The notes below the pieces were generated by a model, which was not told the origin of the DNA, did not search any database, and saw nothing but the letters and a program-made list of their open reading frames with translations. Shown piece after piece: positions 17,526 through 51,934 of a DNA stretch of 64,000 nucleotides. Each line of letters opens with the position of its first letter. Position 1 is the first letter of the stretch. The DNA is from Escherichia phage vB_EcoM_Maryam. The position numbers and the translations under genes were made by a program. Location of the stretch: the sequence record PQ799574.1; one strand, 5' to 3'.

Positions 17526-17771
17526 TTATTCACCAGTTACTTTCCACAAATCTTCGTTTGCAGTAATCCATTCAGTACGTTGATTTTCTTCATATACTGT
17601 AGAATATGCTGCTTTTTCTGAAGGGAATATCTGATAATGAGCTCCAGAAATTTTGTGAACGTCAGAATAAAGAGGGAAAGCTACAGAAATTTCCTTTCCT
17701 TCAATTTTCTTATTTCCATCTAATTTCTGCTCAAACGTTTTGATATTAACATAACCGCGAGTACTAGCCAT
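17526..17771 (-). CDS. soc: small outer capsid protein Soc
   Basis: 81-aa ORF of T4 Soc size; late promoter TATAAATA upstream; terminator downstream. Confidence 0.85.
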   Translation of the reverse strand: MASTRGYVNIKTFEQKLDGNKKIEGKEISVAFPLYSDVHKISGAHYQIFPSEKAAYSTVYEENQRTEWITANEDLWKVTGE

Positions 17772-17801
17772 GTAATTCTCCTTTTATTTAAATTACATGA
17801 T

Positions 17802-17809
17802 TATTTATA
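17802..17809 (-). promoter_or_regulatory. late promoter TATAAATA for soc
   Basis: Forward tatttata about 30 nt upstream of the soc ATG. Confidence 0.5.
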
Positions 17810-17993
17810 ATAAATTCTCACGGAACGTTAAAATACCCAATTTTAGTTAATATAACAATATCGCCGTTAATAATTACCGGAGAATAATCGGCTGGAGCAT
17901 TAAATTTTCAATGGGCTCTAATATTATATCCATCAGAACCAAATGCTCGACTAGCCGGTCTCCCGGCTTTTTGCCATGCATAAAAATCAAATT

Positions 17994-18200
17994 TCATTTT
18001 GAATGCTCTATAATTAATTTTAAGGCTTCTTCACGCACCAACTTGCCTAATGGTATATGACCAGTTTTAATTGTGTAAGCTTTGTGGAGCTGATTAGATA
18101 AGAGCTCGTATGTGAGCTCTTTGTCATAATTTTTAAATAGCTGGTCAATACGTTTCTTGCGGGCTTTCTTAAGCTGGCGTTTATTTAAACGAGCCATCAA
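17994..18200 (-). CDS. hypothetical basic protein (68 aa)
   Basis: ORF between 56 and soc. Confidence 0.4.
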   Translation of the reverse strand: MMARLNKRQLKKARKKRIDQLFKNYDKELTYELLSNQLHKAYTIKTGHIPLGKLVREEALKLIIEHSK

Positions 18201-18715
18201 TAACCTCGGTCTTGACGAGCGAAGTTTTCAGCATTTTTCAGATAATAAAGTTTAAAGATTTCTTCAGCTGACATTCCAAGAGCAATGAATTTATTCATGA
18301 AAAAGTGAAATTGGTCAATCAGTTCAAATTTAATTTCAAGCTGATCTTCAGGAGATAAGTCTTGAATTTTCTTGGATTGCATTTCAGAATAACGTTTCTT
18401 CCAAGGTTTCCATACGGCAGAAGCTTCTTTTTCACCATTACTCATACCACCAAGAGAAGTATATAGCTCGCGAGTTTCATCTGCGATATAATCGTCTTGG
18501 TTTCGCAGCCAAGTAAGAACTTCTCCTGCAGTTTCAAGTGAATCGGGATGACGATTTGTTTCTGGTTTATCATTAGCCAAACGAATCTGTAAATGCCGCT
18601 GCATATCAAGCATAACCTGCAGTGGGTCAATATTGTGCATAATATTCTCAGCATATGCACGATTTGCTTTATCAACACCTTCGATCAAATGAGCGCATTC
18701 ATTAAAGTGAGCCAT
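18197..18715 (-). CDS. 56: dCTPase / dUTPase (gp56), 172 aa
   Basis: Start taken at internal ATG (MAHFNE) with RBS; length then matches T4 gp56. Confidence 0.8.
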   Translation of the reverse strand: MAHFNECAHLIEGVDKANRAYAENIMHNIDPLQVMLDMQRHLQIRLANDKPETNRHPDSLETAGEVLTWLRNQDDYIADETRELYTSLGGMSNGEKEASAVWKPWKKRYSEMQSKKIQDLSPEDQLEIKFELIDQFHFFMNKFIALGMSAEEIFKLYYLKNAENFARQDRGY

Positions 18716-18786
18716 TATTTTTCCTTTCAATTCATGAGTTAGTAGATTAATTATACAATAAATATATAAAGCAATAAGGAGGACAT

Positions 18787-18987
18787 ATGGTACAAAAATT
18801 AATGGCACTTGTTAATGCCATCAAAGGTAATAAAAAGCGTATAGCTTTTACTATTTCTGCTATGGTAGGAATTTTACTCTGGAACTTTATTCTATCACCT
18901 GTTGCAATTGCACATGGTATTAATATTCCAGTAGTTACTCTTGATACATTCGTAGATTTAGCATTTGCTTTAGTTGGGTTAATTTAA
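18787..18987 (+). CDS. small hydrophobic protein (66 aa) on the opposite strand to its neighbours
   Basis: Strong RBS AAGGAGG then ATG; hydrophobic segments. Confidence 0.5.
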   Translation: MVQKLMALVNAIKGNKKRIAFTISAMVGILLWNFILSPVAIAHGINIPVVTLDTFVDLAFALVGLI

Positions 18988-20012
18988 ATCTTAGCATATT
19001 TAGATAACCGCATTTTAGCCATCAACCCCTGGGCAATATTATTTTTCATATATTCCATAATTTGTTCAGGGGTTGCACCTTCCTTTCTAATCATATCATT
19101 AACATCTTTTGATTTCCAGGGAGATTTATCCCAAAACATAACCCTTTCTCCTGCATCAACTAATTTAGTCATTCGCTTAATAGTGTCAGGATGACGAGGT
19201 TCATTATCTAAAACCCACACTCGTCTATCTTTAAATGGAACAACTTCTAGGTCTAATTGACCACCCGTAATAGCTATACCATTTTCAATAAAAAGTGAAT
19301 CTATAGGTCCTTCTAGAACATATACATCACCATCTTTAACTCGTTCGACTCCATATATTTTTGTTGCCTCAGGATAAGCTTTAATGGTGATATATTTTTG
19401 AGGAGCATCTTTCTTTAATGCACGTCCTTGAAAAGACTCAGCTTTTCCATTAGCATTATAAATTGGAATAACAAGACGAGGCTCAGAAATTTCCTTTTTG
19501 TATGTTCCCGGTGCTATGCTATTAACTAATTTAGGCCATTCGGTTGTAAACCAAAGATATTTCCATTTATCCTTTGGAATACAACGAGCTTTTACATATT
19601 TTATAATTGGATGGTCTTCCGCCAGTTTATCTAATCTAACACATGACGGAAGAGATTTAATTATTTTCTTCTCAGGTTGCTTAGGAAGTTCTTTAGGTTT
19701 TTCTACTGGACGACTTTTACCTTTTTCTTTTCTTATTTCAAAGATATACTCACGATATAAATCAGGTTCAAACTCCTTTAAATATATTCCGATTGGTGCA
19801 TGATAATTACAGTTATAACAATGAATATTTCCTTCATTATTATCACCATAATACCATCCACGAGCTTTATTCTGGTCGGTTTTTGAATCTCCACAAACAG
19901 GACATCTAAACCGCAATTTAAAAGTTGAACTATTATTTACTTGTGTGAATTTAGGTAAATGAGCCAATGCACGATACGCAAACTCATTATCAATCCAAGG
20001 TATTGATGACAT
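18984..20012 (-). CDS. 61: DNA primase (gp61), 342 aa
   Basis: Zinc-ribbon CPVCG...CYNC; length identical to T4 gp61. Confidence 0.9.
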   Translation of the reverse strand: MSSIPWIDNEFAYRALAHLPKFTQVNNSSTFKLRFRCPVCGDSKTDQNKARGWYYGDNNEGNIHCYNCNYHAPIGIYLKEFEPDLYREYIFEIRKEKGKSRPVEKPKELPKQPEKKIIKSLPSCVRLDKLAEDHPIIKYVKARCIPKDKWKYLWFTTEWPKLVNSIAPGTYKKEISEPRLVIPIYNANGKAESFQGRALKKDAPQKYITIKAYPEATKIYGVERVKDGDVYVLEGPIDSLFIENGIAITGGQLDLEVVPFKDRRVWVLDNEPRHPDTIKRMTKLVDAGERVMFWDKSPWKSKDVNDMIRKEGATPEQIMEYMKNNIAQGLMAKMRLSKYAKI

Positions 20013-27862: not shown

Positions 27863-30558
27863 TCAGCCAAACAGGAAGTCTAACGAAGCTTTTTCTTCAT
27901 AGTCCATACCAGCCGATTCACACATGCCTGCAAGCGGTTTAACAAACGATTTTTGGAACAAAGTTGAGTAGTCAATCCAAGATAGTACATCAGAACGAAT
28001 TTCTTTTGGAAGTTCTGTACCCGACGGCCAAGCAATGCACTTGTCGCCAAATGGATTTCCTTCACGTAATGGAAGAACCATTACCTTATTTCCATCCAAA
28101 ATTGGAGCTACACCCAGACCACTAACAGCTCGACGATAAGTTAGCACACCACGAATATGGAACGGGCATTTAAATCCTGGCCAACCTTTATCATCATATT
28201 TCGCTATATCGTTCGCAGTTTTTACTTCAGCAATAACTTTATAGTCAAGTTGACGATATTCTTTCTCGAAGTTCTTGTAATATTCTTGGACAGACTCTTC
28301 ACCTTCCTGAAGAATACGACGAATACTTTCTTCAAGAGCTTCTTGAACTGCTTTAGGCGTTGAACTTTGCTGAGTTTCCATACCCATGATTTTTAGATGC
28401 GGTTCAGCAAAACGCTTATCTTCCATATCATATACGTTCAGAGCATAACGCTTTTTCGCTTTCCAAAATCCACCAACGCCCTTTGAACCAAGTGGAGGGC
28501 AAGAAATAGCTTCACGGTCCATATGCATCAGATGCTCGCGGTTATTCATATAATCACATAACTCACGATATGCAACATCAATCATAGGTTCCATCTTTTT
28601 CTTACCGAACTGATTCATGAATTCAACTAAATCGTTCTGCTCTTTGAATCGGTCAAGACCAACTTTTTCAATAACTTTATCTACACAAACATATACCGAA
28701 TCAGTATCACCTGCTGCAATGAAATCTTCGCCATTAGTTCCGCACACTTTATTCAGATACTCATTAATTTTACGAGCAATCCACTGAATACCAACTTGGC
28801 CGAAAATTGTGATAGCAGTAGCATTTCGCAAATCATAGTAACGGAAATGAATATTACCAAGAGCACCGTAAAGGCTGTTAATAAGAATTTTACGGTTCAG
28901 CTGATTTGTATTAGCAAGTGTAGCCGCTTTTTCACATTCTTCAATCAAACTATTGAGAACAGATTCAGTATAATTCGATAGTTCATTTAAGAAATCATCA
29001 CTGAACTTAACATATCGTTCAACTTCAGGTTTAGTTGAACAAGACCCTGCGCCTTTCATAATAATCTTTTTAATAGCTTCGGCATTCATTTCTTCAGCGA
29101 ACATTTTCTTTTTCCAATCTTTACGCTGGAAAAATACTTTAGCGATTTCCTTTGGAATGATACCTTCTTGATGCTTATCGTACATCCATCCATTCGGAGA
29201 ACAAGAATATTCATCACTCGGTTTAGGAGCTGTTCCTGCGATATATTCATGAATTGGATGAACTTTAAACTGACCACGAATAGTCTCAGGACTAATGTTA
29301 ACCTGACGAATAATGCTCGGATACAGAGACGTCAAGTCAAAACTCATAATATATCGACGAGCAATTGGTTTAGGTTCAAATACAAATGCACCCGGAAAAC
29401 TCTGTTTAACGTGCGAACCTTGTTGAGGAATAACCTTATGTTCACCTTTCAATGAGTTAAAAATAATAGCATCCCAGGTTTTAATAGGACTCATTACACC
29501 AGAAAAAGGCATTTTAGCGTAATAAGACATACTTAAAACTAGATCGATAAACCCGCGAATTTTATCAATTGCTTGAACTGATTCTACGTCAATGATGTTA
29601 TAACTAATGTATCGTTGATGATTAGTCTCACGAAGTTTATTAATAGGACCGTCGTATGGTAATTTACCTTTTTTGGTTTCATGCTGAGCAACTGATTCCA
29701 AAGAGAATGACGGCAAATTAGTAAATGCGAATTTCTTATACAAATCTAAATAATCAAGAATAGATACGCCATCAATAGAATAAATTTCTTTGCTACCGTA
29801 CATATTTTGGATAAGTTTAGATTTTACTCGACCGATTGGAGAGAAGCGTTTCATACTACGTTCACCGAGAACCATTTTAACGCGATTCATGATATACGGA
29901 ACGTCAAATCCCTCAATATTCCAACCAGTAAAAATAGCAGGTCGTTTCTGTTCCCAGAGATTGATATATTCCATGAGCATATCACGCTCATTATCGAATG
30001 GCATATAAATTACTCGGTCAAGAATTTCTTGAGGAACTTCATCACCACCTTCACAGTCAAGCTTAGCAGCTAACTTTGCATCCCATTTTGATACTGAACC
30101 ATACATTGAATTCAAAAGGTCGAAAACATAAAAACGATCATCAATTGAATCGTAATGAGTGATAGCATCAATTTCATATTCAGCTTTCATTGGGTCAGGA
30201 AATTTATCACCAGTAACCTCAATGTCACAGTTAGCTACACGAACAAATTTTCGGTCATAAACAATTTCTGAACCGTATGTATCACTGATAAAGCGAGTTT
30301 AAAATCGTTCATACCGAGAGCTTCGAGACCGATGTCTTCCATTCGTTTCATCCAATCTCGAGCATCTTTCATTGATGGAAATTTTTGAGGAGCGCAGTTT
30401 TTACCATAGATGTCTTTGTACTTTGACTCTTCCTTACAATGCCTAAACATAGTTGGAAGATATTCTACTTCACGAGTACGTTCCTTTCCATTTTCATCAA
30501 TATAACGTTCAACAATATTATTTCCGACTGTTTCAATAGAGATATAAAATTCTTTCAT
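27863..30558 (-). CDS. 43: DNA polymerase gp43 (family B), reading frame broken by an apparent 1-nt deletion near 30289
   Basis: 107-aa N-terminal ORF (30235-30558) plus 775-aa ORF (27863-30190); the frame of the large ORF stays open upstream to about 30290; fragments sum to the 898 aa of T4 gp43. Confidence 0.85.
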
Positions 30559-30606
30559 AGATATTCCTTAGTTTATAGCCCGAGTTATTAGGCTCTTGAT
30601 ATATTA

Positions 30607-30635
30607 TACTCCAAATAAGGGGCCGAAGCCCCTTT
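30607..30635 (-). other. stable UUCG hairpin in the leader of gene 43 (possible terminator or regulatory structure)
   Basis: AGGGGC-UUCG-GCCCCU; weak U-run. Confidence 0.35.
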
Positions 30636-30638
30636 GCT

Positions 30639-30875
30639 TTAAATTTCTATTGTACGACGCGATATAACGGACTTGCCATCTGTATTTGTGGTTTTGATAA
30701 TCGCATGAAATGCGCGTTGGCGTGGGTAAACTAATCGTTGGAATTCTTTTTGGAATTCTATTTGTTTATCTTCCGGGAGGTCAAAAACCAGTTGGGTAGA
30801 AGACAGACCATATGTTTGTTTTAGATTTTCGAATATTAGAAAAGCTTCGGTAAACTGAATCTCTGATTGTGTCAT
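30639..30875 (-). CDS. hypothetical protein (78 aa) between regA and gene 43
   Basis: Internal ATG with RBS; the track ORF start overlaps regA. Confidence 0.4.
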   Translation of the reverse strand: MTQSEIQFTEAFLIFENLKQTYGLSSTQLVFDLPEDKQIEFQKEFQRLVYPRQRAFHAIIKTTNTDGKSVISRRTIEI

Positions 30876-30885
30876 ATAATTTACC

Positions 30886-31254
30886 TTAATTACCAATCGT
30901 ATATTTAGGAACGAGTTTCCATTCATGTTTTTGTTTAAAAGAAATAACTCGGAAGTTATTAGTTAAATCTTTCATAAAAGTTCTTTGACCAGGAACGATT
31001 TCAATCAGTCCCCAATCTTCTAACAACCATGCAATCGAATCACGACGAACTTCATCTTCTTCTGTCATTTCAACTTGGCGACCATCCATACGAAGCATTT
31101 CTTTAAAATGAACGATATAGTATAGTCCTTTTTTCTGAAGAATATGACAGGACTGATACAGAACTTTATCTTTATTATTAGCAATTCCCATACGAGTCAA
31201 AGTTTCTTTTACTTTCAGAAAATCTTCAGGTTTTTTAAGAGTAATTTCAATCAT
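30886..31254 (-). CDS. regA: translational repressor RegA (122 aa)
   Basis: Length identical to T4 RegA; position upstream of 43. Confidence 0.85.
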   Translation of the reverse strand: MIEITLKKPEDFLKVKETLTRMGIANNKDKVLYQSCHILQKKGLYYIVHFKEMLRMDGRQVEMTEEDEVRRDSIAWLLEDWGLIEIVPGQRTFMKDLTNNFRVISFKQKHEWKLVPKYTIGN

Positions 31255-31255
31255 T

Positions 31256-31801
31256 TTACCATTCCAATGCTAGTTTTTTGAGTTGTTTCTGTTCTTTTAC
31301 GTTCTTAGTCACTTCTTTCAAAAAATCATCCGTGACTAAACCTTTTAGTTCTTTTAATACTAAAGGAAGTTTTCCATTTTTAGTAAGAATTGATTTATAG
31401 TTAATTGCATCATTTGTATTAACTTGATACCACTTAGCAAGTAACTTAATAATCAATACTTCGGTGGAATCTTCAACCAGTTTTGCCCATTTACCGTATC
31501 TTTTACCACGAGGAACTGCAGCCATTAGATAATTAAAATGAGCTTCATCACTTAAGCCTGATCCAATTAAATTCATAGCATATACAGCTGGCATGCACTC
31601 TGGAAATTGTGATAATGCATTTTCAACCATGAATTTTGAATAATCTTTTTGAGCAATAGAGCATTTAGTTTTATTATTGATAGCTCCAATTATTTCAAAA
31701 AATTCATTTTCAGCTTTTTCTTTAAAAGAATCAGCAGCGGATTGGACAGCTGTCCAATCTTTTGAATACCAAGCAAGTAGGAAAAGATTATGTATGCCCA
31801 T
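31256..31801 (-). CDS. 62: clamp-loader subunit gp62 (181 aa), 5' end possibly altered
   Basis: Position next to regA; about 6 aa shorter than T4 gp62 as I recall it; in-frame TAA directly upstream of the ATG. Confidence 0.75.
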
Positions 31802-31909
31802 TTAGTTCTCCGGTAAATGGAATGCTAAAACCTGCTTTACGCGATCTTTATATTGCGATGAACGAAGAAATGATAAAAGAATTAAAACGTCAACTGAAGG
31901 TGATTTAAT

Positions 31910-32128
31910 TTGGCCAGGGAAATTAATTCAAAATCCGATTATTTTAATTCTCTCAATGATAAAGATAAAAATCTAATACGGCATTTTATTGTTGAGATGG
32001 GATATACCGATACACGCGATTTAAGAGAACATATATTTGAATGTGGTGTAGCTAAAAAGTTTTCATTCACATGCAAATGTTTGAGAGAGGTAATTCAGCA
32101 CTATGAACAATTTAGTCGCAAAACATAA
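31910..32128 (+). CDS. hypothetical protein (72 aa by track, TTG start)
   Basis: ORF only; start codon uncertain. Confidence 0.35.
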   Translation: MAREINSKSDYFNSLNDKDKNLIRHFIVEMGYTDTRDLREHIFECGVAKKFSFTCKCLREVIQHYEQFSRKT

Positions 32129-32211
32129 TTTTAATAAAGCTTCTGTTCATAAGGATAAGAAGAAAGCGTTTAAAGAATCTAATCGCAAGCAGAAACATAA
32201 GGGGAAGGTCT

Positions 32212-32490
32212 ATGATTATTGATTCTCAGTCTGTGGTTCAATACACAATCAAAATTGATATTCTAGAAAAGCTATATAAGTTTCTACCAAATTTATACCA
32301 CTCAATTGTTAATGAATTAGTTGAAGAACTACATCTCGAGAATAATGATTTCTTGATTGGAACTTATAAAGACCTCTCAAAAGCAGGATATTTCTACGTA
32401 ATTCCAGCACCAGGAAAAAGTATTGATGATGTATTAAAAACTATAATGATTTATGTCCATGATTATGAAATTGAAGATTATTTCGAATGA
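32212..32490 (+). CDS. arn: Arn anti-restriction protein (inhibitor of McrBC), 92 aa
   Basis: T4 Arn length; adjacent to asiA; GGGGAAGG RBS. Confidence 0.7.
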   Translation: MIIDSQSVVQYTIKIDILEKLYKFLPNLYHSIVNELVEELHLENNDFLIGTYKDLSKAGYFYVIPAPGKSIDDVLKTIMIYVHDYEIEDYFE

Positions 32491-32639
32491 GTCATAATCT
32501 TGAAAAAGTAATCGAGCATAATGTAGCTCAGGAACGTAAGTCGTTCAAGGAATTCGTAGAAAAAATTTTTGAAGAAAATAGCACAGACCAGTTTACAAAT
32601 CAAACGTCTGATGATATTATAACAAAGTCAACTAATTGA
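32487..32639 (+). CDS. small protein (50 aa), asiA.1-like
   Basis: ATGA overlap with arn stop; own translation. Confidence 0.35.
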   Translation: MSHNLEKVIEHNVAQERKSFKEFVEKIFEENSTDQFTNQTSDDIITKSTN

Positions 32640-32651
32640 GTGGTATAGTTA

Positions 32652-32924
32652 ATGAATAAAAATATTGATACAGTTCGTGAAATTATTACTGTTGCGTCTA
32701 TTTTGATTAAATTTTCCAGAGAAGATATTGTTGAAAATCGTGCTAATTTTATTGCATTTCTGAATGAGATTGGAGTAACGCATGAAGGTAGAAAGTTAAA
32801 TCAGAATTCATTCCGTAAAACTGTTTCTGAATTAACTCAAGAAGATAAGAAAACCCTCATCGACGAATTCAACGAGGGTTTTGAGGGTGTATATCGATAT
32901 CTAGAGATGTATACGAACAAATAA
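32652..32924 (+). CDS. asiA: anti-sigma-70 factor AsiA (90 aa)
   Basis: T4 AsiA length; convergent with holin t. Confidence 0.85.
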   Translation: MNKNIDTVREIITVASILIKFSREDIVENRANFIAFLNEIGVTHEGRKLNQNSFRKTVSELTQEDKKTLIDEFNEGFEGVYRYLEMYTNK

Positions 32925-33581
32925 TTATTTAGCCCTTCCTAATATTCTGGCCGCCTGAGCACATATTGATTCAAGGCGGTCATTACTTATATGATCATTT
33001 CTATACCAGTACATGGTTATCGTTCCAGCATAGATATTATCCAAATTAAAATATGGACAACTGTACATGTAGTTTATTTCAGGAGTAGGCTTTTTAGTTG
33101 GTAAAAAAGCAAATTTTGAGTTGGAATAATAATGACGTCCATTTAAATGAACTGCATATTCATCCATAGTTTTATCAACAGGATATCCTCCAAGTGATTT
33201 TTCACTTATTGTTGAAGGTAATTTTCCTTCATATGCTATAATATCAACAAAATAGTTTAAGTTTTTAGGGCGGAAAGAATACACCGCACTAAAGTCTGCC
33301 TCAGATGATATATGAACTATCTGGAGTTGTTCCAGGGCGACAGATTCAAAGCGTGCATTTCTTTCCTTTTCAATAATTTCACTGTATGTTTCATACTTTG
33401 ATTGCTTATAGTACTCAAAGAAACTATCTCCCCTATACCAAACAATCGCCATCATAAATAAAAGAATTACGACAGCTACACGGGAAGCAAGAACTTTCCC
33501 GGTAGCGTTATCTTTGAACAAGCGATCTAGAACACCAAATAGAATATCAGAGGGCGAAAATGATATTCTAGGTGCTGCCAT
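32925..33581 (-). CDS. t: holin T (218 aa)
   Basis: Length identical to T4 holin; single N-terminal TM segment; follows gene 38. Confidence 0.9.
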   Translation of the reverse strand: MAAPRISFSPSDILFGVLDRLFKDNATGKVLASRVAVVILLFMMAIVWYRGDSFFEYYKQSKYETYSEIIEKERNARFESVALEQLQIVHISSEADFSAVYSFRPKNLNYFVDIIAYEGKLPSTISEKSLGGYPVDKTMDEYAVHLNGRHYYSNSKFAFLPTKKPTPEINYMYSCPYFNLDNIYAGTITMYWYRNDHISNDRLESICAQAARILGRAK

Positions 33582-50058: not shown

Positions 50059-51934
50059 TGAAACAATACCAATTTTTAATTAAAGATATCCTGGAAAATG
50101 GCTACGAAACCGATGACCGAACAGGCACAGGAACAATTGCTTTGTTCGGTACTAAATTACGCTGGGATTTAACTAAAGGTTTTCCTGCAGTAACAACTAA
50201 GAAGCTCGCCTGGAAAGCTTGCATTGCTGAGCTAATATGGTTTTTATCGGGAAGCACAAATGTCAATGATTTGCGATTAATTCAACATGATTCGTTAATT
50301 CAAGGCAAAACAGTTTGGGATGAAAATTACGAAAATCAAGCAAAAGATTTAGGATATCATAGCGGTGAACTTGGTCCAATTTATGGAAAACAGTGGCGTG
50401 ATTTTGGCGGTGTAGATCAAATTATAGAAGTTATTGATCGTATTAAAAAACTGCCAAATGATAGGCGTCAAATTGTTTCTGCGTGGAATCCAGCTGAACT
50501 TAAATATATGGCATTACCGCCTTGTCATATGTTCTATCAGTTTAATGTGCGTAATGGCTATTTGGATTTGCAGTGGTATCAACGATCAGTAGATGTTTTC
50601 TTGGGTTAATTGAGGCCTGAGTATAAGGTGACTTATACTTGTAATCTATCTAAACGGGGAACCTCTCTAGTAGACAATCCCGTGCTAAATTGTAGGACTG
50701 CCCTTTAATAAATACTTCTATATTTAAAGAGGTATTTATGAAAAGCGGAATTTATCAGATTAAAAATACTTTAAACAATAAAGTATATGTAGGAAGTGCT
50801 AAAGATTTTGAAAAGAGATGGAAGAGGCATTTTAAAGATTTAGAAAAAGGATGCCATTCTTCTATAAAGCTTCAGAGGTCTTTTAACAAACATGGTAATG
50901 TGTTTGAATGTTCTATTTTGGAAGAAATTCCATATGAGAAAGATTTGATTATTGAACGAGAAAATTTTTGGATTAAAGAGCTTAATTCTAAAATTAATGG
51001 ATACAATATTGCTGATGCAACGTTTGGTGATACATGTTCTACGCATCCATTAAAAGAAGAAATTATTAAGAAACGTTCTGAAACTGTTAAAGCTAAGATG
51101 CTTAAACTTGGACCTGATGGTCGGAAAGCTCTTTACAGTAAACCCGGAAGTAAAAACGGGCGTTGGAATCCAGAAACCCATAAGTTTTGTAAGTGCGGTG
51201 TTCGCATACAAACTTCTGCTTATACTTGTAGTAAATGCAGAAATCGTTCAGGTGAAAATAATTCATTCTTTAATCATAAGCATTCAGACATAACTAAATC
51301 TAAAATATCAGAAAAGATGAAAGGTAAAAAGCCTAGTAATATTAAAAAGATTTCATGTGATGGGGTTATTTTTGATTGTGCAGCAGATGCAGCTAGACAT
51401 TTTAAAATTTCGTCTGGATTAGTTACTTATCGTGTAAAATCTGATAAATGGAATTGGTTCTACATAAATGCCTAACGACTATCCCTTTGGGGAGTAGGGT
51501 CAAGTGACTCGAAACGGTAGACAACTTGCTTTAACAAGTTGGAGATATAGTCTGATCTGCATGGTGACATGCAGCTGGATATAATTCCGGGGTAAGATTA
51601 ACGACCTTATCTGAACATAATGCTTCCATTTAATATTGCATCATATGCTGCGTTAGTTCATATTGTAGCTAAGATATGTAATCTTATTCCGGGAGATTTG
51701 ATATTTTCTGGCGGTAATACTCATATCTATATGAATCACGTAGAACAATGTAAAGAAATTTTGCGTCGTGAACCTATGGATTTATGCGAATTACAATTAA
51801 AATTTCCAGATGAATTTGATGAATGGAACACAGAATCGCAGGTATTTTGGTTGAGTCAATTTGCAAAGCCTCATAATTTTGTTCTTAACAACTATGAATC
51901 ACATCCTCCTATTAAAGGAAAGATGGCGGTGTAA
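50058..51934 (+). CDS. td: thymidylate synthase, split by a group I intron (exon 1 50058-50606, exon 2 51623-51934; 286 aa spliced)
   Basis: Exon 1 ends ...VDVFLG and exon 2 continues LPFNIASYA... in frame; spliced length equals T4 TS. Confidence 0.9.
50607..51622 (+). mobile_element. td group I self-splicing intron (1016 nt) carrying the I-TevI homing endonuclease ORF
   Basis: Intron starts UAAUUGAGGCCUGAGUAUAAGG and ends ...GAACAUAAUG between td exons; 1016 nt as in T4. Confidence 0.85.
50738..51475 (+). CDS. I-TevI GIY-YIG homing endonuclease (245 aa), intron-encoded
   Basis: GIYQIKN...YVGSA motif; zinc finger; inside the td intron. Confidence 0.9.
   Translation: MKSGIYQIKNTLNNKVYVGSAKDFEKRWKRHFKDLEKGCHSSIKLQRSFNKHGNVFECSILEEIPYEKDLIIERENFWIKELNSKINGYNIADATFGDTCSTHPLKEEIIKKRSETVKAKMLKLGPDGRKALYSKPGSKNGRWNPETHKFCKCGVRIQTSAYTCSKCRNRSGENNSFFNHKHSDITKSKISEKMKGKKPSNIKKISCDGVIFDCAADAARHFKISSGLVTYRVKSDKWNWFYINA

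Follow-up and report, generated by a model that had tools for sequence, protein, structure and literature searches.

The window, that is, the whole stretch of 64,000 nucleotides that was analysed, is of Tequatrovirus (T4-like) origin. Over the first 25 kb it shares 97% identity with Escherichia phage vB_EcoM-101117BS1, and the 501 bases surrounding the ORF described here are 100% identical to phage vB_Eco_CP. The ORF lies between gene 56 and gene 61, both of which are likewise annotated in the RB14 and T4 records. An earlier note on this DNA had put the 56-61 interval at about 270 nt, with no room for a gene the size of dam, and had pointed out a hydrophobic plus-strand ORF of 66 amino acids behind a strong AAGGAGG ribosome-binding site. 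Both descriptions agree with our measurements: the interval is 268 bp long and contains such an ORF, to which we refer as dam.1, the name used for it in the T4T record (HM137666). The features of the locus and its surroundings are as follows.

17526..17771: soc (Pfam Soc, E 8e-54)
17994..18200, minus strand: ORF of 68 aa, homologue of RB14ncORF029c, at the place of T4 segF (phrog_5782, E 6.7e-38; RB14 annotation)
18197..18715, minus strand: gene 56 (dCTPase/dUTPase), 172 aa (phrog_173, E 1.4e-44)
18750..18773, minus strand: middle-promoter-like element for gene 56 (TGCTTTA at 18773..18767, 11-nt spacer, TATAAT at 18755..18750)
18757..18764, plus strand: AATAAATA, box of the T4 late-promoter type with A at -13, 22 nt before the ATG of dam.1 (predicted start near 18770)
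18776..18782, plus strand: Shine-Dalgarno sequence AAGGAGG, 4 nt ahead of the dam.1 ATG, read from the sequence
18787..18987, plus strand: dam.1-type coding sequence, 66 aa, ATG start (ORF listing; phrog_2024)
18789..18824, minus strand: terminator-like hairpin (stem-loop 18824..18799) followed by TTTTTGTACC (pattern scan)
18984..20012, minus strand: gene 61 (DNA primase), 342 aa (phrog_47, E 1.1e-106)

The gap between gene 56 and dam.1 measures 71 bp. At its other end dam.1 is convergent with gene 61; the two reading frames overlap by 4 nt and share the stop-codon stretch TTAA. A Shine-Dalgarno sequence (AGGAG or GGAGG) precedes the ATG in all homologous loci of T4-like phages.

Conservation of dam.1 was assessed with profile searches, tblastn and codon-level comparison. 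The protein matched phrog_2024, a family with no function assigned, with E 1.4e-31 (residues 2-66 on profile positions 1-65 of 65), and all 19 diverse family members matched the same profile. By tblastn, homologues were found in 692 phage records, about 500 of them at ≥90% identity and 190 at <60%, and the frame was intact with at least 80% protein coverage in 686 of the 692. The dN/dS values, obtained from Tequatrovirus pairs among nine distinct alleles, were mostly 0.14-0.30. Copies from Mosigvirus and Gaprivervirus were 49-57% identical to dam.1, and word-seeded and exhaustive profile searches yielded family members down to about 20-25% identity, from T4-like phages of Klebsiella, Enterobacter and Citrobacter, from metagenomic T4-likes and from E. 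coli prophages. A profile search of 1.8 billion representatives returned small proteins only (33-70 aa), of which the full-length ones (57-70 aa) share the sequence motif described below. The place of the gene is equally constant. The order of a leftward 56, a rightward ORF and a leftward 61 was found in Tequatrovirus, Mosigvirus and Gaprivervirus, and also in Enterobacter phage ZX14, Klebsiella phage Marfa, Citrobacter phage CkP1 and metagenomic T4-likes; in Karam-like phages dam.1 likewise lies on the opposite strand and abuts the 3' end of 61. dam.1 and gene 61 meet tail-to-tail, on opposite strands, in all T4-like genomes examined. In some Gaprivervirus (phage UPEC01) and metagenomic T4-likes the 56-61 interval holds two paralogues in tandem. 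Klebsiella phages such as Marfa have the second type alone, and in TH40 the second tandem copy has decayed.

Taken at the level of sequence, these comparisons show dam.1 to be a protein-coding gene under purifying selection. The earlier note had allowed that the ORF might turn out to be a non-conserved artefact of an AT-rich intergenic region, and the full-length family match, the spread over 692 records and the low dN/dS speak against this. The same holds for the related view that a chance frame has arisen in an AT-rich interval which holds only promoters and a terminator of the minus strand. That the T4 reference annotation does without the ORF would fit such a view, as would the two signals on the minus strand, namely the MotA-type promoter of gene 56 and a hairpin within the 5' end of the ORF. 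However, the frame is intact in nearly all records, homologues of about 20-25% identity retain both architecture and position, the hairpin is not kept outside Tequatrovirus, and an Rfam scan of the dam.1 locus gave no match. The conserved plan, position and strand thus cannot be explained by a chance ORF or by a purely RNA-level element, and we consider a chance frame almost certainly wrong.

The TGCTTTA of the middle-promoter-like element is a putative MotA box of a middle promoter for gene 56, as judged from the consensus, and the element overlaps the late-type box of the opposite strand. In T4 and fPS-65 the corresponding site is found ahead of gene 56; the fPS-65 record labels it 'predicted middle promoter', and the T4 record has oriA annotated at the 5' end of gene 56. 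The hairpin sits antisense within the first dam.1 codons, downstream of gene 61. The pattern scan by which it was detected found one such structure where 0.7 were expected, and the fPS-65 record has a terminator annotated at the same place. The hairpin folds in Tequatrovirus only and not in the other genera; by these predictions it is weak and lineage-specific. A conserved RNA element was considered for it and ruled out, given the Tequatrovirus-only folding and the lack of an Rfam match.

dam.1 is not a new gene, as it is already annotated elsewhere as a hypothetical one. Besides its entry in T4T it is known as RB32ORF030w in RB14, where it is described as 'similar to RB69ORF029w', and it appears as a hypothetical protein in a later T4 record and, as RB32ORF030w, in hundreds of Tequatrovirus records. 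The T4, RB32 and RB69 genes share with the ORF of the window the strand, the ribosome-binding site and the place at the 3' end of 61. The protein of RB14 and many other phages is 100% identical to that of the window, and in the T4 copy 64 of the 66 residues are identical. This T4 copy is found at 17738..17938 of NC_000866.4, in which RefSeq record it is unannotated; the 309-bp stretch between dam and 61 of that genome carries no annotation and contains the dam.1 ORF, AAGGAGG included. A literature search on dam.1, RB32ORF030w and RB69ORF029w found no paper on the ORF. Overall, we are confident that the ORF is the copy in this window of the conserved T-even gene dam.1 (PHROG 2024), and that its product is probably a late protein of the inner membrane.

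The absence of dam from the interval was examined against T4, whose reference record has dam between 56 and 61. A tblastn search with T4 Dam against the whole 64-kb window gave nothing below E 2.2, which bears out the earlier statement that dam is missing between 56 and 61; a Dam-like coding sequence was found neither there nor elsewhere within the window. The statement that a 68-aa ORF is all that lies between soc and 56, with no segF-like endonuclease, held as well: the ORF at 17994..18200 on the minus strand occupies this place, and the corresponding search of the window with T4 SegF gave no match. The implied suggestion that the plus-strand ORF stands in the place of dam did not hold. T4 carries both the ORF and dam, so the ORF does not replace dam, and this role was ruled out.

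What differs between these phages is the 5' neighbour of dam.1. About 500 Tequatrovirus records contain the dam.1 ORF; a contiguous dam-less 56-ORF-61 layout, as in the window, is found in 293 phage records and the T4-type dam in 184. Nothing separates 56 from dam.1 in the window and in RB14, dam does so in T4, and dam plus an ORF of 186 aa in BF15 and fPS-65. Other small genes occupy the gap in ZX14, Marfa and CkP1, those of Marfa coding for a secreted-looking protein of 252 aa and a 93-aa ORF, and an ORF of 95-101 aa is another filler among related phages. The comparison of gene orders shows dam, with or without a neighbouring gene, to be a variable insert between 56 and dam.1. By the record counts, the dam-less state is commoner than the dam-bearing one and presence/absence polymorphism is common. 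The lack of dam and segF here is ordinary gene-content variation. In related phages the 56-dam.1 gap is a hot spot of gene gain and loss. GATC occurs 68 times in the whole window, compared with about 208 copies expected from base composition.

Signals for expression of dam.1 were sought on the plus strand. A sigma-70-like site was not found near dam.1, and the late-type box at 18757..18764 is the only promoter-like element on the strand of the gene. T4 late genes are preceded at a short distance by a TATAAATA-type box that spans -13 to -6; dam.1 has one as the AATAAATA variant, in which the first base deviates from consensus. In a list of 50 T4 late promoters, A for T at -13 is found in 9 and is the commonest variant (PMC2988020), and Nolan et al. 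made a like remark on position -13 in other T4-like phages (PMC1524935). The first base is A in the window, C in Gaprivervirus and G, a rarer deviation, in the T4 copy of dam.1. Almost all T4-like lineages examined (Tequatro-, Mosig-, Gapriver- and Karam-like phages, Marfa and metagenomic T4-likes) have the ATAAATA core 14-22 nt ahead of the ATG, the flanking bases being divergent. A perfect TATAAATA box is present in ZX14-like phages and Marfa, and the box of CkP1, ATTAAATA, deviates inside the core. The dam-bearing phages keep the ATAAATA motif although in them 900 bp separate it from the gene 56 promoter.

The motif is rare in the window, with 13 copies of ATAAATA on both strands compared to 36.6 +/- 6.2 expected from Markov simulations. 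Six of the 13 are found just before a Shine-Dalgarno sequence and ATG, namely those of soc (17808, minus), dam.1 (18758, plus), t (33606, minus), 36 (38426, minus), 34 (43493, minus) and I-TevI (50708, plus). The genes soc, t, 36, 34 and I-TevI are late-transcribed in T4. They have the (A/T)ATAAATA box 18-34 nt before the Shine-Dalgarno sequence and ATG, and dam.1 resembles them in this, its box being a candidate only. The boxes of t and I-TevI in the window are of the same AATAAATA variant as that of dam.1; the latter precedes an ORF of 245 aa that begins at 50738 on the plus strand and that we take to be I-TevI of the td intron.

dam.1 is oriented clockwise on the T4 map and the early and middle transcripts of T4 run the other way. 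Because of this polarity and the late-type box, dam.1 is most likely transcribed late, by gp55-RNA polymerase; the late promoter itself is predicted, from its agreement with a consensus from which the first base departs. The polymerase would start late in infection at the AATAAATA box, at about 18770, and the resulting leader of about 17 nt would carry the AAGGAGG. A plus-strand terminator was not found within 4 kb past dam.1, hence the late transcript should run on, antisense into gene 61.

In principle, the conserved feature could be this transcription itself, that is, a late promoter from which antisense RNA would extend into 61 and beyond, shutting off early replication genes late in infection, with the ORF being secondary. 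The linkage to the 3' end of 61 is invariant, including the overlap of the stop codons, the path into 61 is free of plus-strand terminators for 4 kb, and the neighbour at the 5' end of the ORF (56, dam or other genes) varies. Transcription of both strands at different times has been described for several T4 sites (PMC2988020), which also counts for this reading. However, even homologues of about 20-25% identity retain frame, length, motif and ribosome-binding site, and dN/dS lies far below 1, which argues that the dam.1 protein itself is selected; moreover, the prophage homologues are not beside a primase gene. We therefore judge it very unlikely that antisense transcription is what has been conserved, and an antisense effect on gene 61 is possible as an added role at most.

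The membrane topology of the protein was predicted from hydropathy, charge and an AlphaFold2 model. Kyte-Doolittle hydropathy reached up to about 2.0 over residues 19-43. The model, built from a 19-sequence alignment, contains helices at residues 2-12, 16-42 and 52-63, with a mean pLDDT of 79.6. The hydropathy peak and the helix 16-42 agree with the earlier description of a small membrane protein, for which prediction of transmembrane helices had been proposed. The N-terminal 18 residues have a net charge of +5 and the last 24 residues, which are hydrophobic and without a basic residue, one of -2, so the positive-inside rule would place the N-terminus on the cytoplasmic side and the C-terminus on the periplasmic side. 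dam.1 is accordingly predicted to code for a single-pass inner-membrane protein with its N-terminus in and its C-terminus out. The 66-aa product would be inserted through helix 16-42, with a short amphipathic helix on each membrane face, as suggested in part by the helical moments.

The other members of the family (57-70 aa) follow the same plan: a basic N-terminal flank, a hydrophobic helix with Trp-Asn, then Pro, Gly and Pro, and finally an acidic residue followed by a short helix at the C-terminus. The family alignments show little or no variation at W32, N33, P38, G44 and P48. An Asn beside a Trp halfway along the membrane helix and the invariant Pro and Gly residues combine to suggest a specific helix-packing surface in the modelled protein. 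The Trp-Asn...Pro...Gly...Pro motif most likely forms this surface and would serve for self-association or for docking onto another membrane protein.

Searches for a known function were made with the ORF and with diverse members of its family. Scans of the ORF and the 19 diverse members against Pfam, NCBIfam and PADLOC gave no supported family, a sequence profile search of the PDB gave no functional match for dam.1, and a Foldseek search with the AlphaFold2 model against the PDB and BFVD returned nothing beyond the family itself. A type I toxin was considered and ruled out; a single match to Ldr_toxin had an E of 0.1. Several neighbouring small T4 ORFs are covered by recent Pfam families and dam.1 by none.

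As a working model, a late inner-membrane dam.1 protein would bind itself or a membrane partner and affect the envelope at the end of the cycle. That dam.1 in this way modulates lysis timing or membrane integrity is a tentative proposal, more probably wrong than right, which we draw from just two properties, the late timing and the membrane location. T4 is already equipped with holin, antiholin and spanins, which counts against it. A more far-reaching version would have dam.1 fulfil an overlooked core late function, as a bitopic inner-membrane protein that tunes lysis or integrity via the Trp-Asn motif, combined with antisense silencing of the primase and helicase genes. We regard this version as decidedly improbable; if true, a core function would have escaped the omics studies and screens that were built on the T4 reference annotation.

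A more specific form of a lysis role is that of a holin-, pinholin- or antiholin-like protein whose oligomers in the membrane would determine or adjust when lysis occurs. dam.1 resembles holins and pinholins in its small size, in its one strong transmembrane helix (predicted) with a polar residue, Asn, and in its predicted late expression. Matches of single family members were found to phrog_3427 (E 5e-4), phrog_11161 (E 0.012) and the Pfam family GTA_holin_3TM (E 0.03), but these are weak, reach no curated threshold and are what hydrophobic peptides would be expected to give. One UniProt entry labels a 63-aa variant 'Holin'; we discarded this label as a submitter's name without support. Unlike holins, dam.1 has no charged hydrophilic C-terminal tail, as its C-terminus is hydrophobic with a net charge of -2, nor does it have a significant sequence or fold match to them. 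There is no endolysin neighbour in the T4-likes or the prophages, the flanking genes in the former being 56 and 61. The phage also has holin T, encoded at 32925..33581 of the window. T4 t mutants do not lyse, from which it follows that dam.1 does not suffice as a holin. The missing charged tail, the lack of endolysin linkage and the presence of holin T make a canonical holin unlikely, and we consider a holin-like role in the wider sense unlikely, too.

The earlier note had further brought up superinfection exclusion or host interaction, on the ground that small membrane proteins encoded on the opposite strand in such places are often factors of this kind. dam.1 would then act from the inner membrane, in the manner of Imm, on incoming DNA or on a host envelope protein. 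T4 Imm and Sp are like dam.1 small envelope proteins (predicted for dam.1) and their genes are located in the same early-gene neighbourhood, sp being 61.3. However, Imm and Sp are encoded on the early strand and expressed early, whereas dam.1 lies on the other strand and is preceded by a late-type box. T4 exclusion proteins act from the first minutes, and late expression of dam.1, as predicted, makes superinfection exclusion unlikely in the T4-likes. Similarity to Imm, Sp, Cor or Llp, or to any exclusion or defence family in PADLOC or Pfam, was not detected at the level of sequence or profile, and these phages already carry imm and sp. The proposal is thus not supported by our data, and exclusion seems less likely than a role in modulating the envelope as the cycle ends.

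The distant homologues from E. coli (67-70 aa) offer a different setting. They are located at the outermost end of prophages, after the tail-tip and tail-fibre genes and a SegE-like GIY-YIG ORF, and adjoin host genes such as alkA. This is a typical place of accessory genes that are expressed in the lysogen, which speaks for an exclusion or host factor, and a host-interaction role for the prophage homologues is conceivable; lysis genes were not recognisable among the neighbours scanned. For dam.1 itself, all points combined, we hold an exclusion or host-interaction function to be a poor prospect.

For the window itself these findings are of little consequence, as the gene is already annotated in hundreds of Tequatrovirus genomes. 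They matter for the T4 reference annotation and probably for the resources derived from it, which omit a gene conserved across genera of the Tevenvirinae. A gene that is always beside the primase gene and behind a late-type promoter (predicted) is worth adding to reference annotations.

One further observation concerns the window as a whole, which is not collinear with any phage record across positions 31,776/31,777. As far as 31,776 its gene order is that of the standard T4 map (rIIA ... 61, 41, 43, regA and part of 62), and from 31,777 it continues with the reverse complement of the map region down from arn/asiA/t (t, 38-34, rnh, 32, td ...). Phage records that span 30000-33500 of the window were not found. 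At the junction, which is clean, gene 62 (ORF 31256..31801, minus strand) acquires a foreign N-terminus and a small ORF of the arn region is cut. The junction represents a large inversion or, more likely, an artefact of assembly or concatenation.
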